DNA of 64,000 nucleotides from a plasmid. Where the stretch lies: sequence record NZ_CP027239.1. One strand, given 5' to 3'. The notes beneath the pieces are model-generated. The model did not search any database. It was not told where the DNA came from and saw only the letters and a list, made by a program, of their open reading frames with translations. Made by a program: the position numbers and the translations under genes. Positions 10,742 through 40,494 of this stretch are shown piece after piece. How positions within the stretch are numbered: position 1 is the stretch's first letter; every line of letters starts with the position of its first letter.

Positions 10742-10766
10742 GCGCTCATTCTCCCGTTCCAATTCG

Positions 10767-10799
10767 CTCTCCTCGGGCGGAATGACCGCCCGAGGAGAG
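10767..10799 (-). terminator. Perfect 14-bp stem / 5-nt loop hairpin downstream of ssb. A second 11-bp inverted repeat lies adjacent (10807..10817 pairs with 10849..10860).
   Basis: ctctcctcgggcgg aatga ccgcccgaggagag. Located between the ssb stop and the next gene's RBS. Confidence 0.4.
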
Positions 10800-10894
10800 C
10801 GCGGCCCCGGAGGGACCTCATCCGGTACGCGTCCGATCAGCCCAACGCGGTCCCCTCCGGCGTTACCCGGCTGCCCCGGCCACACTCGCTTACA

Positions 10895-24331: not shown

Positions 24332-24436
24332 CACACGCGGGCAGCACGCCCGTTCCGTCACCGTGACGTTAGGGCAGGTCAGCGTGGGGACTGGACGTGC
24401 TGCCGCTTCTGCTGGGGGCTCGTCGCCGCTCTCGCA

Positions 24437-25000
24437 CTACTCCAGTTCGGAGGCCGGCACGTCGCTCATCAGCGTGTCGACCGGTTCAACAACCCCGTCA
24501 GAGACAGGGTCGGAGTCGGCAGTGGGGGCTTCGATCTCGCCGCGTCGAGTCAGTACTCGCCAGGCCCGCTGGGCACGGGGCTTAGCTTCTTCTTCTGCCC
24601 AGCGGCGCACGCGCGGCCTGGTCGCAACGGCGGCTCCACCGACGAGGACTAGCGCCGTCACCCCGAGCGCGACCGGGGCCCAGGAGCGGGAGTGCGGCGG
24701 CATCTCCGCCTGACCCTCGAACTCACCCTCGACGTCGATCAGCTCGACAGGTTCGCCACTTGAACCGGCATCGGAGGCGGAAGCTGCGATGTCGGCGTTG
24801 AGGGCCTCGGCGATGCTCTCGTCCCACGTTCGGACGGTCCAGGCGCGGTTGTAAGACTGGTAGCCGCCGGTTCCACGCTCGTAGTAGGTCTCTGAACCGA
24901 ACTGCTTGCCCTTGTCGGTCAAGCCGTAGTCGCCGGGCCCTCCGTCCAGGTATCCGTGCTCGAAAAGAAGCGCATTCATCTCGCGCGCCGTCTTTCCCAT
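24437..25000 (-). CDS. Hypothetical protein with a C-terminal TM helix (start uncertain; the track ORF extends to 25033).
   Basis: Chosen start MGKTAREMNALLFEHGYL is preceded by a GGTAGAGG SD-like sequence. Borders the low-GC noncoding region. Confidence 0.4.
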   Translation of the reverse strand: MGKTAREMNALLFEHGYLDGGPGDYGLTDKGKQFGSETYYERGTGGYQSYNRAWTVRTWDESIAEALNADIAASASDAGSSGEPVELIDVEGEFEGQAEMPPHSRSWAPVALGVTALVLVGGAAVATRPRVRRWAEEEAKPRAQRAWRVLTRRGEIEAPTADSDPVSDGVVEPVDTLMSDVPASELE

Positions 25001-25246
25001 GCCTCTACCGATGTCCTGAGCGGATCTTCCCATAAAGAAATAGTACTCGTACGCGATGGGGAGCCCAGCGGTTCACCTCGCGCGAGCGCCCGGCGCGAGT
25101 CGGCGGCAGCCACCGACACCGCCAGCTACGCTGGAAGCCTGCCAGAATGACGGCACGGCACTGACACCGGACGGGCACGCTGACAATCTTGTCGGCAGCC
25201 AGGATGGCACACCGAAGCGACGTTGCCGCTGCTAGTCCTGCCCCTT

Positions 25247-25272
25247 TGATGGATAATGTTTATTATCCATCA
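25247..25272. promoter_or_regulatory. 26-bp perfect palindrome (11-bp arms, 4-bp spacer) in an AT-richer noncoding region. Candidate operator or origin hairpin.
   Basis: TGATGGATAAT GTTT ATTATCCATCA, read directly. Confidence 0.35.
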
Positions 25273-25318
25273 CGCTGCTGACCCTTCCCGAGATGCCGTC
25301 GGGCCGCCACCGTGTCGG

Positions 25319-25378
25319 TTGCCAAACAGTTTGTCAGTTTGCCAAACCGGTGTCAGCAGCGTGCCACGAGTTTGTCAG
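25319..25378. repeat. Iteron-like direct repeats: TTGCCAAAC x2 and GTTTGTCAG x2, plus an inverted TGGCAAGC copy just downstream (25385-25400).
   Basis: Repeats at 25319-25327, 25339-25347, 25329-25337 and 25370-25378. Confidence 0.3.
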
Positions 25379-25589
25379 TGGTGGCTGCAAGTCTGGCAAG
25401 CAATACGGCGCGGATGTAGCGTCCCCGATCGAGCTAGCGACCTGTTGAGTTCGACGCAAGAGTCGGATCTGTCTTCCCCTGACCGCGCGATGCCCTCAAT
25501 CTTCTTGACGAGCCGCCAATCCATTCCCTTTTCAGGATCGGTAGACGGATACGCGCCGCGCCTACGGAGAAAGGGCACGGCGGCCCTGG

Positions 25590-26346
25590 CTATTTCTTGA
25601 CGCCGCTGAGGTTCTTCTTGATGAGAATCTGGGCTACAAGGTGTCCAGACCCGCCGTTGAGTCCGGCGCCGGGGTGCGTGGAGGCACCGACGTGCCAGAC
25701 TCGGGGCACGTGCGTCTGGTGCGAGGCGTGCGGCAGTGGTCGCCATAGGAGGTTCTGGTCCAGCTCCGACGAACCGCTGTACGGGTCGCCCTTGACGGCA
25801 TTGGGGTTAGCTGCGGCCAGCTCCGGTGGAGTGATGGTGTCGATTTTGAGGATGGTAGAGGTCAAGCCTGGCGCGTGCTCCTCGAGCCTGTTCAGGACGC
25901 GGTCAACATAGGCTGCGGTCGTTTCTTGTGACCAGGTGCCGTCGACATCGATGGTTCCTCCGGCGTCGCCACGCGGTTGCCAGGGTGCTTCCTGCAGTTG
26001 AAGCCAGAGGGCACCTTTGCCTTCGGGCACACGGTCCGGATCCAGGATCTGCTGGCGGCCGACAACGATTGTCGGTTCGGTGGGAAGGAGGCCGGCGTCA
26101 GCTTGCGCGCATGCGATTCCGGTGCTCGCCGAGCCATCGCTGACGTGAACGAGTGGAACGTCGGAAAGTCGTTCGTCCGCGAACTTCAGGGGCCGGTCCA
26201 GGGCGACATGAATTTGGATGGCCGCCCGACCGTACCGGTACTGCTGTGCTTCTCGCTGGATTCTCGGTGGGACGTCACTGAGCAGCGTCCCGTACAGTGC
26301 TTGCGGTGTGACGCTGGCGAGTACAGCGTGACGTGCGCTCACTAGC
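25590..26346 (-). pseudogene. C-terminal fragment of a CrtI/phytoene-desaturase-family FAD oxidoreductase gene interrupted by an IS481-family element.
   Basis: C-terminal GASTHPGAGLNGGSGHLVAQ motif. Joins in frame with 27435..28282 once the IS and one TSD copy are removed. The first 32 codons of track ORF 25590..26441 are IS-derived. Confidence 0.6.
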
Positions 26347-27428
26347 TGTACTGACCACGGACGTTGTGTCACTGGTCGGCATGGCGGGCTGACATAAGGA
26401 AGACCTCCGTGTGAGGTGTGAAAGCGACAAAGCAACCACACTCACAACGGAGGTCTTCATGTCCCACGGTAACGCCCCGCTGACTCCGACGGGCAGGCTG
26501 CGTCTGGCCCGGTGTGTCGTCGAGGACGGCTGGACCCGTGTCCGTGCTGCCGAGCGGTTCAACGTCTCGGTGGGCACCGTGCGCAAGTGGGTCAACCGGT
26601 ATCGCGAGTACGGCAAGGACGGCATGGTCGATCGCTCCAGCCGGCCCCACCACAGCCCGGGCCGGACACCGCGGCGGCGGGAGCGGCGGGTGATCGGCCT
26701 GCGCGTGTCCCGCCGGTGGGGGCCGGCCCGGATTGCCTACCACCTGGGCATGCAGCCCTCGACCGTGCACAAGATCCTGTCCCGCTACGGCTGTCTGCGC
26801 CTGTCGTTCACCGACCCGGCCACCGGCGCCCCGGTGCGTGCCGGCAAGCGGCAGGTGCGCCGCTACGAGCACGAGGCACCGGGCGATCTGGTGCACGTGG
26901 ACATCAAGAAGCTCGGCCGCATCCCCGATGGCGGTGGTCACAAGGTCCTCGGCAGAGCCAAGGGAAAGCGCAACAGCAAGCGTCGAATGGGCTACTGGTA
27001 CATCCACAACGCTGTCGATGACCACTCGAGGCTGGCTTATAGCGAGCTGCTGGAAGATGAGCGCAAGGAGACCGCGGCCGAGTTCTGGAAGCGGGCCGAG
27101 GCCTTCTTCGCCGATGCCGGTATCACCGTGCGCCGGGTCCTGACCGACAACGGCAGCTGCTACCGCTCCCATGCCTTCGCCGACGCCCTCGGAACCGAGG
27201 TCACGCACAAGCGCACTCGCCCGTACCGGCCGCAGACCAACGGCAAAGTCGAGCGCTACAACCGCACGATGCTCGAGGAATGGGCCTACGCCGAACCCTA
27301 TTCCTGCGAAGCCGACCGCGCGGCACGTCTACCGGCCTTCCTGCACCACTACAATTTCCACCGCGGCCACACCGCGCTAAGAGGCGCCTCACCCGCAGAC
27401 CGCGTACACAACCTGCGTGGACAGTACA
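26347..27428 (+). mobile_element. IS481-family insertion sequence (1082 bp) flanked by the 6-bp target-site duplication ACTAGC (26341-26346 and 27429-27434).
   Basis: Terminal inverted repeats TGTACTGACCACG (left) and CGTGGACAGTACA (right) match 12/13. The NCTAGN-type target duplication is typical of IS481. The transposase stop codon TAG is supplied by the duplication. Confidence 0.75.
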
Positions 27429-27433
27429 ACTAG
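26459..27433 (+). CDS. IS481-family DDE transposase.
   Basis: 324 aa. GGAGG SD. N-terminal HTH (GWTRVRAAERFNVSVGTVRKWVNRYRE). DDE integrase core with HVDIKKLGRIP...VLTDNGSCYRS...RPQTNGKVERYNRTM. Confidence 0.85.
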   Translation: MSHGNAPLTPTGRLRLARCVVEDGWTRVRAAERFNVSVGTVRKWVNRYREYGKDGMVDRSSRPHHSPGRTPRRRERRVIGLRVSRRWGPARIAYHLGMQPSTVHKILSRYGCLRLSFTDPATGAPVRAGKRQVRRYEHEAPGDLVHVDIKKLGRIPDGGGHKVLGRAKGKRNSKRRMGYWYIHNAVDDHSRLAYSELLEDERKETAAEFWKRAEAFFADAGITVRRVLTDNGSCYRSHAFADALGTEVTHKRTRPYRPQTNGKVERYNRTMLEEWAYAEPYSCEADRAARLPAFLHHYNFHRGHTALRGASPADRVHNLRGQYN

Positions 27434-27434
27434 C

Positions 27435-28282
27435 CCTTTGTCGGTAACGACTCCGGTAGCCTGCTGGTCGGCCACGGTGATGGATTCAGCAGTTCTGCCG
27501 GTCATCACCGTTACTCCGAGCTCGGCGAACAGGCTCTCGAAGGCGGCCACGAAGTTTCCTGCGCCGCCAGCCACGATGGGCAGACCAAATCCGTGCATCG
27601 TGGCGGCGAGGACCGGGATCATCATCCCGCCGGAAGCGTTGTCGGGCGACATCCCGGCGTGCAGTAGCCATGGCGCCCAGATTTGGTCCGCTTCGGTACC
27701 GTTGAACCGTGCCCTTGTGAATGACCGCCCGCTGGTCAGTGCGTCGCGGGCGAGCATTTCAACACCGTCGAGTTTCTGCTTGCGCAGTGCATCGAAACCC
27801 AGCTTCGCAAGGGTCTTCTTCGATCGCAGGTCTGACCCGAGGGCCCCGAACACTGTGCCTGAGCGTGCCCCCATCTCATCCAGCATCGCCACGTACGCAT
27901 CTTGGTCGTGGGCTTCGGCGAACCCTTCGGCCGTGCGCTGGGGGTCTCGATAAGCGACCGAGGTAAGGTCGCGGGCGACGCTCCCAGTGAGGGCAGCGTC
28001 GGTGTTTCGATACTCGAGTCCGTGCGCATGGAGTTTGTCGCCGATTGCGGCGTAGGCGCCGCCGGAGACGAAAAGCGGATGCCAAGAAGAATAGATGTCA
28101 TGTTCATATCCGGGCAGCGTTCGTTCGCCTGAGGCAATGAATCCACCTAGATTCTCATTGCGTTCAATGATCGCTACACGCCAGCCAGCCAAACCGAGCT
28201 CGGCGGCCGCGACGAGGCCATTTACGCCAGATCCGATCACAACTGCGTCAAAAGGTTCCATGATCTGTGCTCTCGCTTCCAC
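27435..28282 (-). pseudogene. N-terminal fragment of the IS-disrupted CrtI-family FAD oxidoreductase gene.
   Basis: Rossmann dinucleotide motif DAVVIGSGVNGLVAAAELGLAGWRVAIIERNENLGG. The last 14 codons of track ORF 27389..28282 read into the IS. Confidence 0.6.
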
Positions 28283-28802
28283 TCGTTCCGCTGGCTCCAG
28301 GCTGCGTGTTGCAACCTCGGGCTGACTCTCCTTGGCGACGTCGGAGCGCCTGTTGAATCAGGCGGGCTGAGCACTCGACATGTGATGGGTACCGTTCAAC
28401 CGCTCGTGCCCGACGCGTGTTCGATTGCTGATCGTCAAGTGCAGGAGTTCTGTGTTCAATGATCGGGCACCGGCGGCGTTCCCGCGGTCGATTTCGTGCA
28501 TCGGGTCGGTCTTCGGCGGAAAGTGGCCGGAGCGCCGCGGAATTTGGCTGTGACGCGCATCTCCAGGGATCCTAACGTGAGATGCAGCGCACTGGCCTGC
28601 GGGTTTAAGAGGAGCCGAGTTCGGTCAGAAGAAGCTATTCCTGATTATGCAGACGGTGAAACACCGCATAGGAGGAATTGGCCATGGCAAAAGTGCCTAC
28701 CGCACGCAGTGATCATCGCTCTCTGGCACCGAGGAACGGCAGTCGCTCGCGGCGTCGCGGTCGCGGACCACTTGGTGGACCGTCCGCTGTGTGCCTGGGT
28801 GC

Positions 28803-29123
28803 TCAGTAAGCGGCGCCGAGCTCAATTAGGAGTACGCCGCCGACAATGAGGATGACGCCGAGCCCCATCAACCAGGTAAGGGGCTCCCTGAACAGGAAAC
28901 GGCTGATGATCGCCGTCAACGCCACCCCAGAGGCGGCCCAAATTCCGTAGGCGACACCGAGAGCCATGCCGGCGGCCAACGCCAACGACAGCATCGTGAA
29001 CGCCAGTAAGTACCCGACGGCCACGCCCGCGTACCAGAGCTTTTTGTCCACAGCGATGCGCAGTGAGATAGTGCCGAACACCTCAAATGCGATGGCGGCG
29101 ATGAGAAAGAGCCAGGTCATCGG
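28803..29123 (-). CDS. SMR-family small multidrug/guanidinium-type efflux subunit, second subunit of a pair.
   Basis: 106 aa from the internal ATG (MTWLF...). Four TM helices. Conserved membrane-embedded Glu in TM1 (AFEVFGT). Confidence 0.75.
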   Translation of the reverse strand, partial: PMTWLFLIAAIAFEVFGTISLRIAVDKKLWYAGVAVGYLLAFTMLSLALAAGMALGVAYGIWAASGVALTAIISRFLFREPLTWLMGLGVILIVGGVLLIELGAAY

Positions 29124-29482
29124 GCCACCTCGCCCTTCTTGTTCTTGTGTCCCATCTGGGCGCCGAGTTCCACACACAGCACTCCACCGATTACGACGAC
29201 GGTGCCGATACTCATCAGCGTGGTCAGCGGCTCATTGAAAAACACCATCGACAACAATGCCGTCAACGCGACCCCGGATGCGCCCCAAATACCGTAGGCG
29301 ACACCAAGGGCCATTCCTGTGCGCAGTACCAGAGCCAGGAACACGAACGCCCCCACATAGCCGATCACGACGACCGCATAGAGAGCAGGCGCATTAAGCG
29401 CGGCCTTCAGTGACAGCGATCCCGCGACCTCCAATAGGATCGCGCCGACCAGCAACAGCCACCCCTTCGCTTGTCGGCTCAC
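29117..29482 (-). CDS. SMR-family efflux subunit, first subunit of the pair.
   Basis: 121 aa with four TM helices. LLEVAGSLSLK with a conserved Glu. Overlaps its partner by 7 nt. Confidence 0.75.
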   Translation of the reverse strand: MSRQAKGWLLLVGAILLEVAGSLSLKAALNAPALYAVVVIGYVGAFVFLALVLRTGMALGVAYGIWGASGVALTALLSMVFFNEPLTTLMSIGTVVVIGGVLCVELGAQMGHKNKKGEVAR

Positions 29483-30006
29483 TTTGCCCCACCTTCGTCC
29501 AGCAATCTCATCGCAGCCGAATACACTGCGTCTTCCTCATCCCCGCGAACCGCCTGAATGCCAAGTCCTTTGTTGAACCACGCCCCGTCAGCCAGGAGCC
29601 TGGCGGCCCGCAGCGCACCACGCTGCCGGGGTGTCCCTGTGATCTCGGTCCCGAACCACGGGTCCATGCGTTGCGTCCACTGGGCTGCCAGCATTTCCCT
29701 CAGTCGGACGTCGACCAGCAGCGCAAGGTCGCTCTGGTCGAACTCTCCCGTCACCGCGTGCTCCACGTAGGCTCGCAATCTTTCGGCTGGGCTGCTGTCC
29801 TCTCCTGCCTGCTTGCGCAGCACTGTCAACCACCGATCTGCGATCCGGTCCACCACCGCCAGCACCAATGCCTCCTTAGTTTCAAAGTGGTGCACTACCC
29901 CTGGCTTCGTCAGGCCAGCCTCGCGCGCAACAGCATCGATCGCGAACGGCTCACCACGGCGCAGCACTTCGATCGCATCATCAAGAATCTCCGGTTTCGT
30001 GGCCAT
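29479..30006 (-). CDS. TetR/AcrR-family transcriptional regulator.
   Basis: N-terminal HTH (AIDAVAREAGLTKPGVVHHFETKEAL). ATGA coupling to the downstream SMR gene. Confidence 0.8.
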   Translation of the reverse strand: MATKPEILDDAIEVLRRGEPFAIDAVAREAGLTKPGVVHHFETKEALVLAVVDRIADRWLTVLRKQAGEDSSPAERLRAYVEHAVTGEFDQSDLALLVDVRLREMLAAQWTQRMDPWFGTEITGTPRQRGALRAARLLADGAWFNKGLGIQAVRGDEEDAVYSAAMRLLDEGGAK

Positions 30007-30021
30007 GCCACCACCCTACCG

Positions 30022-30031
30022 ACCATATGGT
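30022..30031. promoter_or_regulatory. Palindrome ACCATATGGT nested in a larger imperfect inverted repeat (CTACC...GGTAG), about 20 nt upstream of the tetR start. Candidate TetR operator.
   Basis: Read directly. Its position relative to tetR-smr is typical for autoregulated TetR operators. Confidence 0.3.
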
Positions 30032-30154
30032 AGGTCAGAGAGCTTCGACCGTCGTGGGCTCCAGATAGCCGGGTCGGAGTCGCTGTTGAGGATCGTCCAA
30101 CGCGACAGCGATCCTCTGCTCGTGGACAGAAACGCGATCCGACAATGAGCCGAC

Positions 30155-31171
30155 TCAGGTGCCGTTGTGAGTCTCCCCGGCGCGGAGGTTCTCGTGTGGG
30201 GTGGCGCCGAACTGGCGGCGGTAGTCCGCAGAGAATCTCCCGTAGTTGTAGAACCCCCAGCGAGCGGCGACGGCCGTAGCGGTTGTGTCATGTGGGGAGG
30301 ACTGGATGAGTTCGTGGCGGGCTCGCTCCAGGCGGACCCGGTGTCGGTATCGCATTGGCGTTGTGCCGACATGGCGGGTGAACCCGTCTTGGAGTGCACG
30401 GACGCTCAACGCCACTTCGCGGGCGAGATCGGAGACGGATGCGTACTCGAGCGGATTCTCCTCCAGTGCCTCGACGGCCGCGCGGATCGGTCGGGGGCCG
30501 GTGAAGCCAGATGGCGCAGCGAGCGCTTCTGTGTAGTTGCTCGGGATGGAATGGATCAGACTGCTGACGGCCATTCGACTGAGGTGGTGTGCAGTTCGCG
30601 CGCGCTCCAGGACGCTGGCCTGTCCAAGTTCCATGCGGAGCAGGGTCATTATCGATTCCAACGCGCGAAAGGTGCCGACTGGGGGGTGGGGGTCGAACCG
30701 AATCGGTTTGAGCACTGTCCGCCCGAGGGTTTGTGCGATCTCGTCATGGACCAGCTGTGGGGCAAACCGCAGGGACGTCGCACTAGTGTCACTGAAGTAG
30801 TCGACGGCCGCGTCTTCCCCCGCAGAGACGACCACGCACTGGTGGCCCTCGGTGGCGATCTCCCGGCCGCCGAGTCGCGAGACAACCTGGCCGGTCGTGG
30901 AGATTAAGACGCTGTAGAAGGGGTTCTCTGGCAGGAGCATGGACGCGGTCGAGATGGAGAAGTTAGCGAACCACAGTCCAGGAAGCTGATGCTCTTGGAA
31001 CCGGACATCAACGACCCTGTTCAGCGGCGGTGAGTCGACCCGCGCGTCTGGGTAGACCTGGCTGAGCCGGGTGGACAACTCCGCAGGATCGCTTGTGGTG
31101 ACTGTCACTTCGGTCGGTGTGGGGGTGTTGTCGGCCGTCGAGGTCAGATGGGCATTCATGGTGCGCGTCAC
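30155..31171 (-). CDS. AraC/XylS-family transcriptional regulator.
   Basis: C-terminal double HTH (DLAREVALSVRALQDGFTRHVGTTPMRYRHRVRLERARHEL...WGFYNYGRFSADYRRQFGATP). Confidence 0.7.
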   Translation of the reverse strand: MTRTMNAHLTSTADNTPTPTEVTVTTSDPAELSTRLSQVYPDARVDSPPLNRVVDVRFQEHQLPGLWFANFSISTASMLLPENPFYSVLISTTGQVVSRLGGREIATEGHQCVVVSAGEDAAVDYFSDTSATSLRFAPQLVHDEIAQTLGRTVLKPIRFDPHPPVGTFRALESIMTLLRMELGQASVLERARTAHHLSRMAVSSLIHSIPSNYTEALAAPSGFTGPRPIRAAVEALEENPLEYASVSDLAREVALSVRALQDGFTRHVGTTPMRYRHRVRLERARHELIQSSPHDTTATAVAARWGFYNYGRFSADYRRQFGATPHENLRAGETHNGT

Positions 31172-31281
31172 CCTTGATTGGAGTGATGAGTATCACGCAT
31201 CAGTGTAGTCGCGGGTGTCGCCGCCATCAGGTGACTGGCCTCCCTTTGTTAAACGGGCAGGCCGCGGGACTGCCCGGGGTG

Positions 31282-32910
31282 TCACCGCGGCAGCCGTTTC
31301 CGGCGGGGGAGGGTAGTGCCTCGGACTAGTTGTTCCGCCGAGCGCTGGCCAGATACCGCGTTGACCCCTGCACCTGGCCACGTCGATGCGCCGGCGAGGT
31401 AGAGCCCGTCTATTGGCGTGCGGTAGCGCGACAGTGACATCGAGGGCCGCATGCCGATGAACTGGTCGAGGTGATGGCTGCCCGAGACCGAGTCCCCGCC
31501 GTGGAGGTTGGCGTTGCCGGATTGCAGGTCGCTAGGGCTCTCCGCCGCATGTCCGATGACTGACTCAGTGACTCCGGGAGCGTAACGTTCGAGTTTCTCC
31601 AGGATTCGCTGGACGAACGGCTCGGTCGCTTCGTCCCACGACCGGCCGGTGAGGTCGCCACCGGCGCCGTGCGGATTCGCGTCACCGGTGATCTCAGCGG
31701 GGACCATCCGGACTTGAATCCACACCGCGTGAAGCCGATCGTCCTCGCTGGTGTTGCGGCTCGGGTCGACGGTACTTGTTTGTCCGACCACTAACAGCGG
31801 TTCGTCAGGAAGAACCCCGGCGAGGGCCTGTTGGTAGGTGCGGGCCATGTCGTCGACGTAGGGCCCAAGATGCACGTAGGCCGAGTCCGCGAGACGACTG
31901 TCTTGCCATGGAATCGGACCCGAGAGTGCAAGGTGAAGCATGAAGGTCCCGGGCCCAAAGCGGAAGTTGTCGGCGGCGAGAGCCATCGAGGAAGGCACCG
32001 GCTGGTTGCGGAGCAGGCGGTGGACCACGGCCGGCAGCGTGGCAGTGGACAGGATGCCGTGACGGGCGGTGATGTGTTCCCCGTCTGCGAGTCGAACACC
32101 CTGGACACGCCCGCTTGCCACTTGGATCGACTCCACGGCCTTGCCGGTGTGGATAGGCACACCGCGGGTGGAGAGCATTGCGGCCAGCGCACGGGGAAGG
32201 TTGGAAGCCCCTCCTTTGACTACATTCATTCCGTGTTCGGCATCGGCGTACATCTCCAGCAGTGGGAAGATCGCCCCGGCCGCGACATCGGGAGCGAAAT
32301 CGACGTGCATGCCCCATGCTGCGGCCATTGATCGGGCCTCTGGAGATGCGAAGTATCTCTCGCCCAGCGAGCGGGTAGTGGAGGTCATGACCTGCAGGAG
32401 TTCGGACACGCTGGTGTGCTGCCGTTTGAAGAGCACCGAACGGATCACTGACGCGGTGCTGCGCGACGGGAAGACGTTGCTGGATAGCGGGCCGTAACTG
32501 CTGGCAACGTCGGCGAATACCTCGCTCAGGCGACGCCAGCCCTTGGCATCCCCTGGATCGTGCTCCTCCCACATGCGCTGGTTCTCGTCGGCGTCGTCGG
32601 AGATCCGGATACTGGGTGCGTTGGGAAACGCCGAGGCATACGCGTGGCGACAGTGTGAGAACTCGAGACCGGCCGAGGACAGCTCATCACCGTAAGTGGC
32701 ATAAAACGGTGAACCGAGGAAGAGGTTCATGTTCATGGCGTAGCGGTCGTGCACGAGACCGGGGCGCACTAGTTCACTGCTGCGGACCGCGCCGCCGATC
32801 TCGTCAGCCGCCTCCACCACAACGACCTTCAAACCCGCATCGGCGAGCGTGATGGCAGCGACAAGGCCCTGGTGGCCTGCACCGATGACGACGACGTCGG
32901 TTGTGGGCAT
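31282..32910 (-). CDS. CrtI/phytoene-desaturase-family NAD(P)/FAD-dependent oxidoreductase (intact paralog).
   Basis: Start at MPTTDVVVIGAGHQGLVAAITLADAGLKVVVVEAADEIGG. C-terminal GLYLAGASTWPGAGVNAVSG motif. The track ORF N-extension is rejected. Confidence 0.7.
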   Translation of the reverse strand: MPTTDVVVIGAGHQGLVAAITLADAGLKVVVVEAADEIGGAVRSSELVRPGLVHDRYAMNMNLFLGSPFYATYGDELSSAGLEFSHCRHAYASAFPNAPSIRISDDADENQRMWEEHDPGDAKGWRRLSEVFADVASSYGPLSSNVFPSRSTASVIRSVLFKRQHTSVSELLQVMTSTTRSLGERYFASPEARSMAAAWGMHVDFAPDVAAGAIFPLLEMYADAEHGMNVVKGGASNLPRALAAMLSTRGVPIHTGKAVESIQVASGRVQGVRLADGEHITARHGILSTATLPAVVHRLLRNQPVPSSMALAADNFRFGPGTFMLHLALSGPIPWQDSRLADSAYVHLGPYVDDMARTYQQALAGVLPDEPLLVVGQTSTVDPSRNTSEDDRLHAVWIQVRMVPAEITGDANPHGAGGDLTGRSWDEATEPFVQRILEKLERYAPGVTESVIGHAAESPSDLQSGNANLHGGDSVSGSHHLDQFIGMRPSMSLSRYRTPIDGLYLAGASTWPGAGVNAVSGQRSAEQLVRGTTLPRRKRLPR

Positions 32911-33016
32911 CAAGATGTCTCTGTTCTGCGCTGGTGACCGCAGGGCGGTCGACGGTGGTGAATGTACTGGGTGCTCTGGCGTGGCTGCGCTGGGGCAGCC
33001 ACGCCAGAGGCTGGTA

Positions 33017-33877
33017 TCAACGCCAGTCGGCGAGATTGTCGGCGAGGTAGTCGGAGAAGGTTCGCGCCGGTCGTCCGGTGAAGCGTCGCACCGTATCAAT
33101 GCGAGGGTTCAACAGGCCGGTGTCGTACATGAAATGCAGTCCGACCAATGAGTCGGCGACCCATCCGGGAACGCCGTCAGCAACGAAATTGGCGCGCGCT
33201 TCATCAACTGAGACCTTGCGATACTCAATGCTTGTGTCGAGCGCCTCGGCCACCTGGGCGGCGCACCCCGAGTAGGTGACTTCCTCGGGACCGGTGATGA
33301 GGATGGTCTCGTTCTGGTGGTTGTTCTCGAGCAGGACCTGGGCGGCAACTGCGCCGACGTCGCGAACATCAATCATGGTGATTCCGGCGTCAGGCCGCAC
33401 GGCGGCCTCCATGATCCCGTTCGCTCGGATGCGACCGGCGAACTGCACGGCCATGCTCTGCATGAACGAATGTGGGTGCAGGATGGTGTAGTCCAGCCCG
33501 CTGGCGGCGATGTAGCGGTCGTTGACGACGTGCCAGCGGCTGAATCCGCAGGGCGAGTCGTCTGCGGCCGTGTAGACCGACAGCTTCACAATGCTGTCGA
33601 CACCGGACTCTACGGCTGCGTCGACGAGTTTGTTCTGAACTTCGACCTGATCTTCGGCCGGCGGGGTCAACATGAACAAGCTGGTGACTCCCTGCATGAA
33701 GTCACGGACGTCCTCGTCGTTACGAACGTCGCCAATTACGACCTGCACGTTGTCGCCGCTCAGTTTCTGTGCCGATTCGGGACTGTGCGCGAGGGCCTTC
33801 ACCGGGACATTAGCCGCGGTCAATACCTCCATCAATGGTGCGCCGACCTGACCTGTGGAACCGATAACCCCGATCAT
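33017..33877 (-). CDS. NmrA-like/atypical SDR NAD(P)-binding protein.
   Basis: Start MIGVIGSTGQVG (Rossmann GxxGxxG) preceded by an AAAGGA SD. Confidence 0.7.
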   Translation of the reverse strand: MIGVIGSTGQVGAPLMEVLTAANVPVKALAHSPESAQKLSGDNVQVVIGDVRNDEDVRDFMQGVTSLFMLTPPAEDQVEVQNKLVDAAVESGVDSIVKLSVYTAADDSPCGFSRWHVVNDRYIAASGLDYTILHPHSFMQSMAVQFAGRIRANGIMEAAVRPDAGITMIDVRDVGAVAAQVLLENNHQNETILITGPEEVTYSGCAAQVAEALDTSIEYRKVSVDEARANFVADGVPGWVADSLVGLHFMYDTGLLNPRIDTVRRFTGRPARTFSDYLADNLADWR

Positions 33878-33996
33878 GGGATTCCTTTCGTTGCCGTGGC
33901 GGCTTGCCACGGATTGGTCCGCAGAATGCGAACCGCGTGTAGTGGATGAGTGTGCTTAGTTCGGTTAGAGGGCCGGCCGCTTTTTCCGGCCCGTGG

Positions 33997-35490
33997 TCAC
34001 GTGACCGGTGCCGTTATCGCGTGCGCCGCCGACGGCCGCAGTGTATGAGAAAGCGCGTCGGCTGCTTCGGCGCCCGCACAGGTGGAGTCTTGGGTGTGAG
34101 TGGCCCAGGCGACGTAGCCGTCGGGGCGGACGAGCGCCGCGGTGACTGCCGTCCAGCCGGCTGTATCGATTGCGTCTGCATCAGCGGCTACCGTGTGCAC
34201 ATCCTCGAGACCTTCGAGTGTGAGGTCGTCGCGATGAAGCAGCACAAAGCGGGGACGATCGAGCTGATCGAAGAGGCTCTGTCCGGCAGGACTGGTGAGC
34301 TGCACGTCGGGAGCGCGGGTGCCAACGATGGGAAGAGAACCCTCGGGCGCCAGGTAGCGCACTGCCAGCCCCGACAAGCGTAGGGCGAGTTCGTAGTTCA
34401 TCTCTGTCACCGAGCCAATGAGGTCGTTAGTCAGTGTGCGTAGACCTTGATCGCCCGGGGCGAAGGCTTTGATTACTGCGGTCTGAGCCTGACTGGTGGT
34501 CATCAGTGCTTGCCCGACAGGGTGGCGATCTGCGTGATAGCCCTCGAGGAGGTCTTCGTCGGCCGTTCCGTTGATGACGTGACCGAGCCGCCAGCCAAGG
34601 TTCAGCGCGTCCTGCAGGCCGATGTTGAGTCCGACTCCGCCAGCGGGGTAGTGAATGTGCGCTGAGTCGCCGGCCACGAAAACCCGCCCGTTTCGGTACT
34701 GCGACGCGAGCCGCGACGCGTCCCCGAACCGGGTCAACCAGACGGGGTCACGCATGCCGAAATCGTCTCCGGCCGTCCGGATCACCGTCTCTCGGAACTC
34801 GTCGAATTCGAGCGGGCCCTGTGGATCTTGGCGGGCAAGGTCGATGCCTGACACTCGATAGAAGCCACCGGGAACCGGTGCGACGAAGATGGCGCCGTGT
34901 TCACCGTGGCGAACGAAGCCGCGCTCGGGCGGAGAGTCGAGGTAGACCTCGCCGAGGAAGGACCAAAAGGTGACCTCTGAGCCGGGAAAGTCGATGCCGG
35001 CCGATTCGCGGACCACACTTCGGCCGCCATCACAGCCGACCAGGTACTCGACCTGTTCGGTGTAGTGCCCGTCGGGGCCATCGACCTCCAGCGTCACCTC
35101 ATCGGCGGACTGACTGGCTGAGATGACTCGGTGCTCACGACGCAGTTCCGCGCCGGCCGAAAGGGCTGCGGATTCGAGCGTGTTCTCGGTGCCGACCTGC
35201 GGGTAGGCCAGCACGAATGCGTATGGGCTCGGCAGTTTGGAGTAGTCGATGCTGTTCGGCAGCATGGCGTAGTGGTGCCGGGGCAGCCTGATGCCGCCAG
35301 CGAGCATGTCGTCGGCCAATCCGCGCATGGTGAGGATCTCGATCGTCCGGGCGTGGATGCCGAGGGCCTTGGAATAGGGAGAGCGTTCAGCTGCTGCTTC
35401 CAGCACGACTGTGCGCACTCCCTGCATCTGCAGTTCCCGGGCGAGCATGAGCCCGACGGGGCCGGCTCCGGCGATGGCTACTGTGGTCAC
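33997..35490 (-). CDS. FAD-dependent aromatic-ring monooxygenase (PheA/TfdB-like hydroxylase).
   Basis: GTG start with AAAGGAAG SD. AIAGAGPVGLMLARELQMQGVRTVVLE dinucleotide-binding motif. DG motif GCDGGRSVVR. GD motif VFVAGDSAHIHYPAGGVGLNIGLQDALNLGW. Confidence 0.7.
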   Translation of the reverse strand: MTTVAIAGAGPVGLMLARELQMQGVRTVVLEAAAERSPYSKALGIHARTIEILTMRGLADDMLAGGIRLPRHHYAMLPNSIDYSKLPSPYAFVLAYPQVGTENTLESAALSAGAELRREHRVISASQSADEVTLEVDGPDGHYTEQVEYLVGCDGGRSVVRESAGIDFPGSEVTFWSFLGEVYLDSPPERGFVRHGEHGAIFVAPVPGGFYRVSGIDLARQDPQGPLEFDEFRETVIRTAGDDFGMRDPVWLTRFGDASRLASQYRNGRVFVAGDSAHIHYPAGGVGLNIGLQDALNLGWRLGHVINGTADEDLLEGYHADRHPVGQALMTTSQAQTAVIKAFAPGDQGLRTLTNDLIGSVTEMNYELALRLSGLAVRYLAPEGSLPIVGTRAPDVQLTSPAGQSLFDQLDRPRFVLLHRDDLTLEGLEDVHTVAADADAIDTAGWTAVTAALVRPDGYVAWATHTQDSTCAGAEAADALSHTLRPSAAHAITAPVT

Positions 35491-35572
35491 GGCGTTCTTC
35501 CTTTTCGCAGGACGCCTCACCCGACTGCGCCTCGTAGCGCGCAGTCGAGTAGAGGTGTGGCGGTGGGTCGCT

Positions 35573-37108
35573 TCAGGTAGTGGGAGAGACGGGGTCGCGG
35601 AGTTCTCGTTTGAGGAGTTTCCCGCTCTGGTTCCTGGGTAGGGCATTGACGAAGTGGATCGACTTGGGCACCTTGAACGGCGCCAGCAGGGTCTTCGCGT
35701 GCCCGGTGAGTTCGGTGTCGCTGACCTGCTGGTCGTCCCGGACCACGACGAAGGCGGTGACCGCTTCGATCCAGCGGTCATCGGGTATTCCAACGACCGC
35801 AACCTCGGCGACCGCGGGGTGCTCGTAGAGGGCCTCCTCGACCTCGCGGGGTGCAATCATCACGCCGCCGGAGTTGATGACGTCCGAGAGGCGATCGACG
35901 ACAGTGATGTACCCGTCGGCATCTTTGGTGACCAGGTCGCCGGAGTGGAACCATCCGTCGCGGAAAGCTCGCTCGGTGGCTTCAGGGTTGTTCCAGTAGC
36001 CCAAGCACAACTGCGGCGACTGGTAGAGCACCTCCCCGGGCTCCCCGGGTTGGACGTCGTTCCCGGAGTCGTCGACGACCCGAGTGGTGACGAACAGGAC
36101 CGATCGTCCGCACGATGCTGGCCGGGCGTCGTGTTCCTCAGGACGCAGCACGGAGGCCAGCGGGCCGATCTCGCTTTGGCCGAAGCAGTTGTAGAAGCCA
36201 GCGTTCGGCAGTGCCCGCCGCAGTTTCGCTAGCACTGGTGTGGGCATGATCGATGCGCCGTACTGCGCCTTTCGCAGTGCGCCGAGATCCCGGCGCGAAA
36301 GATCAGGGTGCTGGGAGAGCGGCACCCACACGGTCGGCGCCAGGAACAGGGAGGTGATCTGATCCTCTTCGATGCGACGGAGGATCAGCTCGATATCCGG
36401 CTTCCGGAGGAGTCGGATTGTCGTTCCGAGCATCAGGTACGGGACCGTGAAGATATGCATCCCGGCCGAGTGATACAACGGCATGCACACCAGCGGGCGA
36501 TCCTGCTCGGTGAAGTCCAGCGCAGTGATCGTGGAGATGTACTCGCTGATCAGCGCCTGGTGGGACATCATCGCCCCTTTTGGACGTGAGGTCGTTCCCG
36601 AGGTGTACAGCAGCTGGACCAGATCACCGGGGGAGGCGGGGCTCTGCCACTGCGGTGCTGAGCCGCGCTGAAGTTCCTCGGTGTCCAGTATCCCGTTTTC
36701 GCGATCTGAGAATTCCAACACCTGTAGGGCGCGATCGGCGATGACAGAGCGTACGAGCGGTGTGAGATCCGGATCGGCGACAATGGCTGCCGCACCGGAA
36801 TCGGTGATCAAGTACTCGAGTTCCCTGCCGGTCAGTGCGTTGTTGATAGGGACATGCACCACTCCCGCCCGCGAGCACGCCAGATACAGCATGACGTAGA
36901 ACGCGGAGTTGCCGCCGAACGCCGCGACTCGGTCGCCCCGGTTCAGACCGAGCCGATGCAGGCGTGAGGTGACAACATCAACGGCGCGGTCAAACTCCTG
37001 GTAGGTCCACACCTGACCCTCGAACTCGATCGCCTCGCCGTCCGGGCTTCGCGATGCAGTCCGGCGCAGCAACCCGTCGACCGTGTGCGAGCGTGGATCT
37101 GAATACAT
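35573..37108 (-). CDS. AMP-dependent synthetase/ligase (acyl-CoA synthetase-like).
   Basis: AMP-binding motif LLYTSGTTSRPKGAMMSH. GDLVTKDADGYITVVDRLSDVINSGG. C-terminal PRNQSGKLLKREL. Confidence 0.8.
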   Translation of the reverse strand: MYSDPRSHTVDGLLRRTASRSPDGEAIEFEGQVWTYQEFDRAVDVVTSRLHRLGLNRGDRVAAFGGNSAFYVMLYLACSRAGVVHVPINNALTGRELEYLITDSGAAAIVADPDLTPLVRSVIADRALQVLEFSDRENGILDTEELQRGSAPQWQSPASPGDLVQLLYTSGTTSRPKGAMMSHQALISEYISTITALDFTEQDRPLVCMPLYHSAGMHIFTVPYLMLGTTIRLLRKPDIELILRRIEEDQITSLFLAPTVWVPLSQHPDLSRRDLGALRKAQYGASIMPTPVLAKLRRALPNAGFYNCFGQSEIGPLASVLRPEEHDARPASCGRSVLFVTTRVVDDSGNDVQPGEPGEVLYQSPQLCLGYWNNPEATERAFRDGWFHSGDLVTKDADGYITVVDRLSDVINSGGVMIAPREVEEALYEHPAVAEVAVVGIPDDRWIEAVTAFVVVRDDQQVSDTELTGHAKTLLAPFKVPKSIHFVNALPRNQSGKLLKRELRDPVSPTT

Positions 37109-37267
37109 CTGGTTTCTCCTGCAAATTCGGCGAATCCGGCAGGGTACGGGTGGGCCGGAGCCGAGTCGCTCGCTCAGGGAACGACCAGCGTCAGCTCACC
37201 CGCACCCTGCAGGTCGGTCGAGTGGGGTGGAGCACAGCGGGCTGGTGGTAAGCCCGCAGGCTGGGAG

Positions 37268-38296
37268 TCAGTACGTACCGCGGTCCCGCGTCTCGAACAG
37301 TCGGCGGGGATTCGCGACCGTAATCTGGTGGATCTGGTCATCGGTCACCCCGGCCTCCTGCAGCTGGGGAATGATGCGGCGCAGCACGGTTGTGTACGTC
37401 GGGTGCTGCCGCTCCGGCATGGGGCCCAGATCATGGAACGTGGAGTCATCCTGCGAAATGAGGATCTGTTCGAGATAGCCACGATCGATCAGTCCAGTAA
37501 TGCGCTCGACGCGCGTCTTCTGGATCGCATTGCGGTAGTCCTCGGGCCATTGGTAATCGAGCGCGGAAGTGTCGAACGACAGGAACGAGCCCTTCTTCGC
37601 GACGGCCTCGAACTCCTCGAGTTCAACCGACGGATCCGTCCAGTCGACGTGACCGAATTTCACACGACTGACATCGACGTCGAGCTGTTCGAGGTAGTCC
37701 TGCTGGTCCTGGGCCACGCGGATTCCCAGCCCGATACCAGTGTGGGTCACGATGGGCACGCCAGTGCGACGGTGGGCTTCTGCAGCATGGCGCATCACCA
37801 ACTTCACACCGTCCATCAAGCCATGGTGATCACTGGTGATCTTGATGGTGCCTGCCCGCACACCAGTGTCGAGAATCCCTTCCTCGATGTCTTTCACGAA
37901 CAAGTCAGCCAGGGACGGCCATGTCGTTGCTGCTGTCTCGGGCAGCATGTCCATGAGCATGAATGGATGCGGGGCATCGGTCCACGTGTACCACCCGGTA
38001 GGCACGATGATATTGACGCTGGTCCTCTGCGCGATCTCCTTGAGCAATCGAACATCACGCCCGGCGCCGGGGATCACGCGGTCACTGATCGTGTCGATGC
38101 CAGCAGATTTGGCGTGCTCGAGCTGCTTCGCGGCTTCGGAGATGCGCTCCTCCCGTGCAATGGAAGCGAAGCCCATCTGCGGCCAATTGGCCTCGACCTC
38201 AGCCGTTCGAGGCCCAATCACACACTCAGTGACGAGCGTGAAACCTAGGTCACTGGAGTCGATCTCGTCACCGCGAGCAGTAGGGATCTTGGTCAT
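37268..38296 (-). CDS. Phosphotriesterase-like (amidohydrolase superfamily) protein lacking the canonical HxH metal ligands.
   Basis: AAGGAG SD. Aligns to the PTE/PLL fold (GFTLxxExx, carbamylated-Lys KIT, VTHTG, FGHVD, ISQDD). The first two His ligands are replaced (GFTLVTECV instead of GFTLxHEH). Confidence 0.7.
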   Translation of the reverse strand: MTKIPTARGDEIDSSDLGFTLVTECVIGPRTAEVEANWPQMGFASIAREERISEAAKQLEHAKSAGIDTISDRVIPGAGRDVRLLKEIAQRTSVNIIVPTGWYTWTDAPHPFMLMDMLPETAATTWPSLADLFVKDIEEGILDTGVRAGTIKITSDHHGLMDGVKLVMRHAAEAHRRTGVPIVTHTGIGLGIRVAQDQQDYLEQLDVDVSRVKFGHVDWTDPSVELEEFEAVAKKGSFLSFDTSALDYQWPEDYRNAIQKTRVERITGLIDRGYLEQILISQDDSTFHDLGPMPERQHPTYTTVLRRIIPQLQEAGVTDDQIHQITVANPRRLFETRDRGTY

Positions 38297-38699
38297 GAAA
38301 TACTCCTTGTCGTTCCCAGCGAACACCGCGGGATCTAGACGATTGGCCCGGCGACAAACGACGATCACGATCTGAATCGGACCTGCTCAGTAGCCGTACA
38401 AAGACCATAGGAGCCGGAGTGATAGGCATCACAGCCGATAAGCGCACGCAAACGGCCAGTTTCCGTAGCGCCGATCGGCGCCCGACCATTCGGGTTAGCC
38501 CTGCCGTGTTCTGCCGCATCCAGCCGAATGGTGTCTCGGCGCAGCGGAAGCCTTCGCGCACGACATGACCCAGCTCGCGGAAGATACGTGTGACGCGGTG
38601 TCCGGCCATGCCGGCGGCCGCGTGTGGATCGTCAAGCGTATCGATGATGATCGGCGAGCAGTTCAGGCCGCCGTGGGACCGGCGGCAATTGCCGGCCGC

Positions 38700-39000
38700 T
38701 CACGGTTGGTAACGGGCGAGGTGGTCGTGGCGGGCGAGCCAGCGCTCTAGCGGGATGGACACCAGCGGCGGGATCGCCGCGAGGACGGCCTGGAGAGCGA
38801 TCCAACACTTCCAGCGCAGAACGACCGCGGCGACGATCGTCACGGCGAGGAAGGCGACGCCATGAAGCGTCCCGAAGATCTTCACGCCGACCTCGGTCGT
38901 CCTAGTGACATATTTGAGGAAACATGCCGACGAGCAACCCGGTCCAGGTGGCGGCTTCGACAAGGGCGACCGTCGCAAAGACGCGGCCACTCTGCGTCAC
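38700..39000 (-). pseudogene. DUF3817-family small membrane protein gene carrying a frameshift near 38920.
   Basis: The N-terminus (VTQSGRVFATVALVEAATWTGLLVGMF) reads from a GTG in one frame. The rest (LKYVTRTTEVGVKIFGTLHGVAFLAVTIV...) reads in track ORF 38700..38990. The join is at a T-run (atgtttcctc). Confidence 0.4.
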
Positions 39001-39006
39001 CCCTCA

Positions 39007-39109
39007 TTGTCACCGGCTGTCAGTGGCTAGGATTCTGCCAATCTCGTGACAATTGACGCCTGACAGGCAGGTGACAAAGTACTGGTGGACTGGAAGCCCA
39101 CTGACAAGC
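39007..39109. repeat. Cluster of six (G/C)TGACA(A/G) motifs (4 direct, 2 inverted) about 200-300 bp upstream of the integrase gene. Candidate arm-type or operator sites.
   Basis: ttgtcacc, ctgtcagtgg, cgtgacaattgac, cctgacagg, ggtgacaaag and cactgacaag, read directly. Confidence 0.3.
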
Positions 39110-39303
39110 TGCTTGAGAACCGACACACCGTATACCCCCCGGGGGTATGCGGTTCGGGTCCGTGAGCACTACGCGCCGCCGCGGTTGCCGCTCCGCGTTG
39201 CCGGCTTCCACGCCGCCGTCGCCTGAGCCCCGACGCCCGGGCCACTCGGCGGGTCCACCGGTTACGGTTATCTGAGAATCCGTAGGTCGCCTCGAGGAGC
39301 CGC

Positions 39304-40362: not shown

Positions 40363-40494
40363 GCACTTTTCGCAGGTCAAACGGGTTCCCCCACTTGTCG
40401 TAGGTGCGCGTTAGGGTCGTCGCACACGGAACCCACCCCACCTATTCCGTCTTGCCCGACGTCCGCTTCGGCGGGCCCGTAAAGCGAGGCCATC

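Follow-up and report, generated by a model that had tools for sequence, protein, structure and literature searches.

An origin-like intergenic region of a Dietzia plasmid probably joins a putative Xer-type recombination site to the end of a mobile island

An intergenic region of 556 bp on a Dietzia plasmid, positions 25034–25589 of the 64,000-nt stretch of sequence record NZ_CP027239.1 that we searched (hereafter the window), had been put forward in a preliminary description as a candidate origin of transfer (oriT) or replication (oriV) or as a master operator. Our analyses suggest instead that the gap brings together two unrelated things, a conserved AT-rich dyad and, 40 bp from it, the terminus of a 13.8-kb mobile island with its repeats, and that it is probably not a replication or transfer origin. 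The dyad is most likely the cognate core site of the plasmid's own Xer-like tyrosine recombinase, probably serving the resolution of plasmid multimers and perhaps also autoregulation. At a finer scale, we consider it fairly probable that the gap is a composite of four layers, comprising the promoter of a 198-aa gene, a decayed transposon end, the Xer-type site and the island terminus. The features on which this reading turns are listed below; related loci carry labels beginning with L.

25247–25272, no strand: dyad TGATGGATAAT-GTTT-ATTATCCATCA, proposed core site of the Xer-like recombinase (dif-like, symmetric, single-recombinase)
25308–25312, no strand: left copy of the target-site duplication CACCG
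25313–39125, no strand: transposon-like cargo island of 13.8 kb, 61–65% G+C, absent from L010
25313–25390, plus strand: left end of the island, with a 26-bp terminal inverted repeat (TIR) at 25313–25338 and subterminal repeats (TTGCCAAAC twice, AGTTTGTCAGT twice, TGTCAG three times)
39010–39125, minus strand: right end of the island, with a TIR at 39100–39125 and a subterminal array of TGTCA(G/C)/TGACA
39126–39130, no strand: right copy of CACCG, directly after the right end
39131–39147, no strand: second palindrome ATACCCCC-C-GGGGGTAT, shared with L010 and L002
39304–40362, plus strand: Xer-like tyrosine recombinase of 352 aa (Pfam Phage_integrase)

Make-up of the intergenic region

The region lies between the start of the minus-strand 198-aa gene (24437–25033) and the stop of a minus-strand flavin adenine dinucleotide (FAD)-oxidoreductase fragment (25590–26441). 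No open reading frame (ORF) with a coding-type pattern of third-position G+C (GC3), Rfam family or tRNA was found within 25034–25589, and promoter and terminator scans of the region gave nothing informative. When the region and its flanking DNA were searched against collections of plasmids and phages, cargo genes and SSB only were retrieved, and no relatives of the region. It had been described as the largest noncoding stretch and as AT-richer than its surroundings. The former is only approximate, similar gaps being found at 3183–3765, 4459–4979 (58% G+C and thus more AT-rich) and 28283–28802; the latter holds, but the difference is mild (61.3% G+C compared with 66.9% for the window, with a minimum of 57% at 25200–25399).

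All of the sequence features that had been listed for the region are present. The 'perfect 26-bp palindrome' has perfect arms of 11 bp, but its centre, GTTT, is non-palindromic, so that it is not a 26-bp palindrome in the strict sense; the dyad is readable either as a perfect 11-4-11 arrangement or as 10-6-10 (TGATGGATAA-TGTTTA-TTATCCATCA). It is unique in the window at up to three mismatches. Perfect inverted repeats of at least 11 bp with a spacer of 0–8 nt arose in 32% of first-order Markov simulations of the window, and several longer GC-rich hairpins occur in the window itself; the dyad stands out by its A+T content (73% within sequence of 67% G+C) and its conservation, not by its size. 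The iteron-like short repeats and their inverted copy were also confirmed: TTGCCAAAC is found at 25319 and 25339 (20-nt spacing), (A)GTTTGTCAG(T) at 25328 and 25369 (41-nt spacing) and TGGCAAGC at 25394–25401, and TGTCAG/CTGACA occurs five times in the 556 bp where 0.23 occurrences would be expected from its window-wide density.

Comparison with relatives separates these two sets of features. Contigs with homologues of the recombinase or the 198-aa protein preserve the ancestral layout, the 198-aa gene and that of the recombinase lying divergently side by side, 440–485 bp apart. The closely related locus L010, whose recombinase gene shares 96% nucleotide identity with that of the window, is uninterrupted (...ATTATCCATCACGCTGCTGACCCTTCCCGAGATGCCCTCGGGCCGCCACCGCATACCCCCCGGGGGTATG...) and has a single CACCG within GGGCCGCCACCGCATACCCC. 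The window breaks off from it after GCCACCG at 25312, L010-like sequence resumes at 39126 with CACCGTATACCCCCC, and the window minus 25313–39125 and one CACCG is colinear with L010. The intervening island starts with TGTCGGTTGCCAAACAGTTTGTCAGT and finishes with the reverse complement of TGTCGGTTCTCAAGCAGCTTGTCAGT; its two ends agree at 21 of 26 positions, forming imperfect 26-bp TIRs, and each end (75–115 bp) holds six to eight TGTCA(G/C) or TGACA motifs. A degenerate pattern of these ends matched two sites only in the window, namely both island ends, with none expected. Given its TIRs, 5-bp duplication and an empty site in a relative, the island is an insertion, its left terminus lying at 25313 after an event 40 bp from the dyad that duplicated CACCG.

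The 'iterons' of the preliminary description (25319–25379) can thus be assigned to the left end of a mobile element; they would be subterminal binding-site repeats of the island, outside the plasmid's own control region. The signature of palindrome plus iterons is thus an accidental juxtaposition, the palindrome belonging to the backbone and the direct repeats to an inserted island that L010 lacks. Nor does the gap simply separate the backbone from an accessory island, as the island boundary falls inside it, at 25312/25313. Absence of the region from homologous elements, named in the preliminary description as grounds for refutation, was indeed seen for 25313–25589 but not for the dyad. Scans for origins may take a caution from this case: what looks like a palindrome with direct repeats in an AT-rich gap may prove to be a backbone site that abuts a transposon end.

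Conservation of the dyad and its linkage to the recombinase gene

The dyad was found upstream of the recombinase gene in every Dietzia-like relative, with a varying left neighbour: the 198-aa gene (L002, L004 and L010), CBASS and other genes (L011) or GmrSD (L012 and L016). The slot to its left holds a CBASS-like set (SMODS, ThiF, JAB and TIR-SAVED) at 1792–6508 in L011 and GmrSD_C nucleases at 8285–9127 in L012 and 1996–2817 in L016. Cargo gathers around the dyad in relatives, this hot spot admitting defence genes (CBASS, GmrSD) or catabolic islands according to the relative, delivered by the transposon family to which the island belongs.

In more distant plasmids, the dyad reads TGCTAGATAAT-CTAT-ATTATCTAGCA (Rhodococcus rhodochrous and R. 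pyridinivorans), TGCTAGATAAC-TGAT-ATTATCTAGCA (R. aetherivorans), TGATGGATAAC-ATTC-GTTATCCATCA (M. gallinarum) and TCATGGATAAC-ATTC-GTTATCCACGA (M. crocinum), among other forms. In an alignment of the dyads of 15 distinct loci (A1), 89.7% of arm cells were symmetric, and symmetric double changes were seen at 6 of the 11 arm positions, amounting to 19 cells compared with 6.8±1.7 in shuffled alignments (reached in 0 of 500). The covariation score was 0.309; shuffling gave 0.113 (0 of 500), and sliding the partner columns gave no more than 0.068. The central four bases vary freely among elements (GTTT, GGGT, CTAT, ATTC and others), as expected for a crossover region. The arms of the L010 dyad are unlike each other (TCATGG...CCATCA), and identity between the window and L010 is ~97% from the dyad rightwards and ~88% left of 25200. 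Since an identity step at the left edge of the dyad together with hybrid arms is the expected product of exchange between different plasmids at this site, the step may be an indirect hint of strand exchange at the dyad.

The best match of the recombinase among PDB sequences is Escherichia coli XerD (1a0p, E = 1.2e-12, residues 88–331), followed by XerC-like proteins, XerA and XerH. Its translation contains the complete R-K-H-R-H-Y catalytic set (LRTGD, GKGSK, HRLRH and LLGHSS...Y), ~160 residues N-terminal of the catalytic domain align to the N-terminal region of XerD, and some of its relatives also match Phage_int_SAM_1. Searches retrieved 96 homologues, and homologues of 38–43% identity occur on 62 plasmids of Rhodococcus, Mycobacterium, Mycolicibacterium, Prescottella and Corynebacterium. 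These were typed as mobilizable (41), non-mobilizable (19) or conjugative (2), the retrieved relaxase examples being MOBF and/or MOBP. Among the plasmid loci of Rhodococcus and Mycobacterium that we examined, most have the dyad ahead of the recombinase gene; none could be detected in L025, and L026 has a half-site only. The distance from dyad to recombinase start ranges from ~20 to ~600 nt and is ~20 nt from the annotated start in mycobacterial plasmids; in the window the linkage has been broken by the 13.8-kb insertion, which leaves the two 14 kb apart. One R. pyridinivorans plasmid encodes two recombinases, each gene with a dyad of its own, one with CTAG arms and the other with ATGG arms. 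Arm type follows the clade of the recombinase: all CTAG-arm sites lie beside one Rhodococcus clade of recombinases, a clade that includes L025 and hence one member with no detectable dyad.

A metagenome scan for ATGGATAAY-N4-RTTATCCAT returned 120 loci, 72 of them of high G+C. A recombinase-family ORF lay within 700 bp of the dyad in 18 of these 72 loci, compared with two such ORFs in 190 kb lying >1.5 kb from a dyad, which corresponds to an ~11-fold enrichment near the dyad. The recombinase was the only gene family recurring beside the dyad on the metagenome contigs, and the dyad was upstream of 15 of the 19 ORFs of this cluster, on 17 contigs. Because the dyad tracks the Xer-like recombinase gene across Dietzia, Rhodococcus and Mycobacterium plasmids, irrespective of the conjugation or replication genes they carry, we favour a site-specific recombination site, perhaps with an autoregulatory role as well, over an oriV or a master operator; what would survive of the original interpretation is a conserved, putatively protein-binding cis-acting dyad.

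Solo dyads, with no adjoining recombinase gene, were detected in complete plasmids as well (L032 3501–3526, L034 3501–3527 and L035 3501–3526). The solo dyad of M. crocinum lies 17 kb from the recombinase-linked copy, beside a Phd/YefM-RelE pair, and differs from that copy in its centre (GTAG vs ATTC).

Proposed function of the dyad

We propose that two recombinase subunits would occupy the dyad, with the recombinase gene ~290 bp to the right in the ancestral arrangement, and that, on a plasmid dimer, a pair of occupied sites would synapse and swap strands in the central bases, converting multimers to monomers. That the recombinase binds and cuts the dyad, and that it does so in multimer resolution, we infer from the sequence comparisons above. 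The site lies in the upstream region of the recombinase gene, so binding may also autoregulate the operon; the ~20 nt between dyad and start codon in mycobacterial plasmids suggest that the recombinase may repress its own promoter. Occurrence of the module on plasmids of every mobility type fits a role in plasmid maintenance.

The inner GATAA-N6-TTATC of the dyad is the same as in the XerCD target dif of E. coli (GGTGCGCATAA-TGTATA-TTATGTTAAAT; PMC2731167) and in the proposed Frankia dif (CACGCCGATAA-TGCACA-TTATGTCAAGT; PMC3025954). As with XerS/difSL of streptococci and XerH/difH of epsilon-proteobacteria, the site is AT-rich, ~26–28 bp long and linked to a single Xer-like gene (PMC2731167). 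Unlike dif-type sites, the dyad is plasmid-borne and not at a chromosome terminus, and its arms are identical and fully symmetric, the outer arm (TGATGG or TGCTAG) being unrelated to dif; identical outer arms are what a single homomeric recombinase would lead one to expect. Cre/loxP of P1 and ResD/rfsF of F, both plasmid dimer-resolution pairs, likewise sit on large low-copy plasmids, the palindromic target preceding the recombinase gene by a few hundred bp. However, they show no sequence kinship to the pair described here, the 11-bp arms and 4–6-bp centre of the dyad contrast with the 13-8-13 layout of loxP, and the function of the dyad is a predicted one. The solo dyads are reminiscent of the Acinetobacter pdif/xrs sites, of which several stand alone on one plasmid beside small cargo such as toxin–antitoxin genes.

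Our literature search found no description of this recombinase–site pair in Rhodococcus or Mycobacterium plasmids. A bolder proposal, tentative and in our judgement rather unlikely to hold in full, is that of a pdif-like system of Mycobacteriales plasmids with the site (T)GATGGATAAY-N4-RTTATCCATC(A), a single recombinase, solo dyads that mark exchangeable cargo and a transposon, lacking a recognisable transposase, that homes as in a mirror to ~40 bp on each side of the dyad or, in chromosomes, to the 3' end of dnaB. About equally likely is that the protein is a full-length relaxase of tyrosine-recombinase type and the dyad the oriT of an actinobacterial Tcp-like plasmid.

Several observations weigh against the composite reading and the dyad as a recombinase core site. 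Its strictly asymmetric centre is 4 nt, below the canonical crossover of 6–8 bp, although dif is readable in the same way. There is no recombinase gene within reach of 54 of the 72 high-G+C metagenome dyads or of those in L032, L034 and L035, so that the dyad may also function in trans or for a different protein. The operator of a homodimeric repressor, or a DNA hairpin, would show symmetric covariation just as well. The dyad of the window is now 14 kb from the recombinase gene, which makes its continued use putative. No canonical relaxase was found in the scanned ORFs of the window, which leaves room for an oriT. Finally, no transposase is recognisable among the island ORFs save that of an IS481 element with unrelated ends, and the island would be either non-autonomous or moved by an unrecognised protein.

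Related transposon ends and possible homing to the dyad

Ends of the island type are not confined to the window. Two features enter here.

Transposon family, end sequence: TGTYGGTTNNCAANCAGNKTGTCAG
25152–25204, minus strand: decayed solo L-type transposon end, in inverted orientation, containing the backbone CTGACA(A/C) motifs, with its inferred terminus facing the dyad from 42 nt away

A scan covering one genome per species found such ends with unrelated cargo in three Dietzia genomes (L019, L020 and L021), and they also occur in L007–L009. The right end of the island is homologous over ~115 nt to ends in L007 and L020. The left end in the window is near-identical to the first 75 nt of the element in D. 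cinnamea, whose cargo is different and which begins 15 nt past the stop codon of dnaB; the equivalent end in Dietzia sp. SLG310A2-38A2 lies 5 nt after dnaB. In both chromosomal cases near dnaB (L019 7440–7500 and L021 6822–6900) it is the same end that is proximal to the gene, and the 3' flank of dnaB looks like a site-specific attachment site of the transposon family. Two elements abut in L019, in the order right end, 15 nt, left end. A mini-element of ~680 bp with full ends and one gene for an SdpI-family membrane protein is found in D. alimentaria and in L007–L009, in L008 on the reverse strand after GGAATGGCA, and a second element follows 4 nt beyond it. Searches of Pfam, NCBIfam and PDB sequences with the ORFs beside the chromosomal ends gave no match; those of 450 and 112 aa beside the L019 end are candidates for a gene set shared within the family. 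An IstA-like ORF follows the end in L008, but we rejected IS21-type ends, as that ORF appears to belong to a separate insertion sequence (IS) that has distinct terminal repeats and lies 460 nt inside the element.

The CTGACA motifs to the left of the dyad belong to a decaying solo copy of an island-type end that is ancestral to the plasmid family. Local alignment of 25152–25204 with the reverse complements of two ends, the left one of the island and that of L021, gave z = 6, and the equivalents in relatives scored higher (z = 9 in L002; z = 20–31 over 64 columns in L004 and L016). The segment would be the remnant of an old transposon insertion; no missing left end of this putative transposon was found in 24332–24436.

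With this solo end 42 nt to the left of the dyad and the island 40 nt to its right, an L-type end faces the dyad from both sides, and the spacing is ~43 nt in L004. The mirror-image arrangement, though it involves two events only, suggests that the dyad or a protein bound to it attracts elements. Whether homing of this kind is the main significance of the dyad here we regard as doubtful, if conceivable. The 5-bp duplication is like that of the IS1202 subgroup that targets Xer sites (bioRxiv 10.1101/2022.12.17.520857), and the ends adopt a fixed orientation beside dnaB. Conversely, a third insertion in the same intergenic region (L007–L009) lies 10 nt from the solo end, away from the mirror position, no dyad of this kind is found near the chromosomal copies, and no cognate transposase was recognised among the ORFs of the island. 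Homing would in any case complement, and not replace, the assignment of the dyad to the recombinase.

Known elements offer partial parallels. ISAba32 and its subgroup of IS1202 share with the island a position near a Xer site, a 5-bp duplication and a fixed end facing the site; the island differs in its spacing (~40 bp vs 5 bp), its 13.8-kb cargo without a transposase of its own and its unrelated ends. Elements of the Tn5053 family are known as 'res hunters'. The island and its relatives resemble Tn7-, Tn5053- and Mu-type elements, and IS21-type ends with their multiple terminal repeats, in the TGT...ACA termini, the 5-bp duplication, the short subterminal repeats over ~75–115 bp of each end and the orientation-specific insertion directly past an essential gene, here dnaB; yet the island has no gene of the TnsB, TniA, MuA or IstA type. 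Follow-up is warranted for this transposon family, which lacks a recognisable transposase and possibly homes to both the dyad and dnaB.

Operator, transfer origin or replication origin

An unlikely alternative is that the dyad is purely an operator, bound by a homodimeric factor or by a recombinase acting as repressor only, and controls the recombinase operon or the 198-aa gene with no strand exchange. Covariation upholds the dyad symmetry as such a site would require, the mycobacterial dyad (~20 nt before the start) overlaps the promoter region, and solo dyads stand upstream of other genes, for example the Phd/RelE pair. A second palindrome is present ~45 nt downstream, at a conserved position and with variable sequence. 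However, no regulator gene co-occurs with the dyad, whose sole recurrent neighbour is the recombinase, and the range of ~20 to ~600 nt to the recombinase start is unlike the fixed geometry of operator and promoter. The 198-aa gene is missing from L011, L012 and L016, where the dyad is kept, so the dyad is not the private operator of that gene. The likeness to dif and the variable centre would also go unexplained.

The second palindrome itself probably takes part in controlling the recombinase operon, as an operator or promoter element. In the uninterrupted site, ~45 nt separate it from the dyad, and the recombinase start follows ~155 nt downstream; the island insertion point is exactly 5 bp from the palindrome. 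Other palindromes occupy the position in L012, L016 and L004 (CTACA-TC-TGTAG, CTCTACA-GA-TGTAGAG and TATAGC-C-GCTATA). The sequence in the window resembles operators of the CsoR/RcnR type.

We also compared the dyad with Fur/Zur-type boxes, the LexA box and parS, and found a misfit in spacing and sequence. An attP of an integrative conjugative element was rejected too: every contig seen shows an intact dyad flanked left and right by backbone genes.

Still less probable, in our view, is that the recombinase is an atypical relaxase that nicks at or near the dyad, with the repeats to its left as accessory sites of the relaxosome. TcpM of pCW3, MpsA-MpsB of SGI1 and MobK of pIGRK provide the precedent, as in each a protein of tyrosine-recombinase fold is encoded beside an inverted-repeat-rich cis site, here again in a Tcp-like element, and the oriT of the known tyrosine-recombinase-like relaxases lies beside the gene (PMC6414798, PMC8152469). 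The adjacency of dyad and recombinase gene in the ancestral arrangement agrees with this, as do a transfer apparatus that looks Tcp-like (FtsK-like coupling protein, TcpC, VirB4-like ATPase and a large cell-wall hydrolase) and a conserved ResIII/DEAD helicase gene that follows the recombinase gene in the Dietzia family as well as on a Prescottella plasmid. No scanned ORF of the window has a canonical relaxase domain, but the window covers part of the element and the relaxase may lie outside it. MobK, TcpM and MpsA lack core-binding and arm-binding domains (PMC8152469), whereas the protein of the window retains an N-terminal core-binding region, its alignment to XerD beginning at residue 88 and taking in part of the N-terminal domain. 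Its module is, moreover, common on MOBF/MOBP plasmids: 43 of the 62 plasmids with recombinase homologues were typed as bearing a relaxase, and the other 19 were non-mobilizable. Solo dyads, and two recombinase–dyad pairs on one plasmid, also suit recombination sites better than an oriT.

Least credible, to the point of being highly improbable, is an iteron-type oriV formed by the AT-rich dyad and the direct repeats: local AT-richness, short direct repeats and an inverted repeat are present, with DnaB and SSB encoded in the same element, yet the repeats belong to an island that L010 lacks and recur as transposon ends in chromosomes, they comprise two copies each of 9 and 11 nt at irregular spacings of 20 and 41 nt, no initiator (rep) gene is adjacent, GC skew follows gene orientation with no origin signal, and the dyad tracks the recombinase and no rep gene. 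Iteron-type origins have at least three regularly spaced direct repeats of ~17–22 bp by an initiator gene, together with an AT-rich unwinding element. Elsewhere in the window, the gap that follows an FtsK/SpoIIIE-type gene at 4459–4979 (521 bp, 58% G+C, the lowest of the backbone gaps) has no convincing ORF and is another possible place for an origin-type cis element.

The 198-aa gene and the left edge of the region

The left edge of the region contains the following features.

24437–25033, minus strand: 198-aa gene, an ORF with coding GC3 pattern whose 5' end opens the region
25040–25045, minus strand: -10-like hexamer TACTAT (TANNNT type), 6 nt upstream of the 198-aa ATG
25077–25099, no strand: 7-bp stem CTCGCGC...GCGCGAG, 45–65 nt upstream of the 198-aa start

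The predicted protein combines a conserved domain of ~88 aa at its N terminus with an acidic linker and a single predicted transmembrane segment. A look-up of the exact protein gave no match, and neither did searches of the Pfam, NCBIfam, PHROG and PDB-sequence families. We retrieved 11 homologues, including a 100% match in Dietzia sp. oral taxon 368. In an AlphaFold2 model the N-terminal domain reached a pLDDT of ~90; a Foldseek search of the model against the PDB found nothing significant, the weak matches being winged-helix regulators. The most distant genome-borne homologue is that of L001 (9319–10552) in Rhodococcus rhodochrous, where the neighbourhood is a defence island (PIN/HTH_17, SNF2 helicase, DUF1156 and GmrSD) with no recombinase beside the homologue. 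The 198-aa gene is itself mobile cargo.

A scan for the sigma-70 consensus found no promoter, and no Shine-Dalgarno sequence precedes the 198-aa ATG in the window or the compared relatives. In the window and in L002, L004, L007 and L001, GTACTNT is conserved at one and the same spacing from the ATG. Read in the light of actinobacterial promoters in general, the conserved hexamer near the ATG together with the lack of a Shine-Dalgarno sequence suggests a leaderless 198-aa transcript, and 25034–25100 is likely the promoter-proximal region. The 7-bp stem is kept in the window, L007 and L010, and in L002 both sides have changed (CTCGCGA...TCGCGAG) with the stem intact.

Cargo of the island

Two further features lie at the left end of the island.

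25590–26441, minus strand: C-terminal fragment of a FAD-dependent oxidoreductase (phytoene-desaturase/amine-oxidase type), whose 3' end closes the region
26347–27429, plus strand: IS481-family insertion sequence, transposase at 26411–27433 (Pfam rve, rve_3 and LZ_Tnp_IS481)

The N-terminal fragment of the same oxidoreductase was recognised by Pfam matches at 27389–28282, with the IS481 element between the two fragments. That element has the inverted repeats TGTACTGACCACG / CGTGGACAGTACA and a CTAG-type target, unlike the island ends. Catabolic, efflux and regulator genes make up the cargo of the island, which includes FAD oxidoreductases, two SMR pumps, TetR and AraC regulators, NmrA, an aromatic hydroxylase, an AMP-ligase, a phosphotriesterase and DUF3817.

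Element context and significance

The window is part of a Dietzia conjugative element. Its backbone genes encode an FtsK/SpoIIIE-type protein, DUF932, SSB, DnaB, a YqaJ-RNase T exonuclease and an HA-domain protein; the backbone to the right of the island encodes the tyrosine recombinase, a ResIII helicase and a NERD protein, and further right follow a large M23/transglycosylase/NlpC-P60 hydrolase, a VirB4-like ATPase and TcpC. Searches of Pfam, NCBIfam, PHROGs and PDB sequences gave no match for the small proteins after the recombinase or for the large uncharacterised backbone proteins.

If the dyad is indeed the core site of the recombinase, the two would form a simple and portable site-specific recombination pair from high-G+C actinobacteria, and would account for the resolution of multimers in these large plasmids, catabolic as well as conjugative. 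Since genetic tools and plasmid biology are thin in Dietzia, Rhodococcus and Mycobacterium, the pair might be of practical use.

Downstream of the recombinase gene (40483–43098), two small proteins (~140 and 126–137 aa) are encoded, followed by a ResIII/DEAD helicase of ~580–610 aa. This gene order, including the two small proteins, is conserved in L010, L011, L012, L016 and L025, and the link to the helicase recurs on a Prescottella equi plasmid. GC-rich perfect hairpins with stems of 15–17 bp lie between genes at 10765–10801, 32974–33009 and 44969–45003 and have a terminator- or REP-like look.

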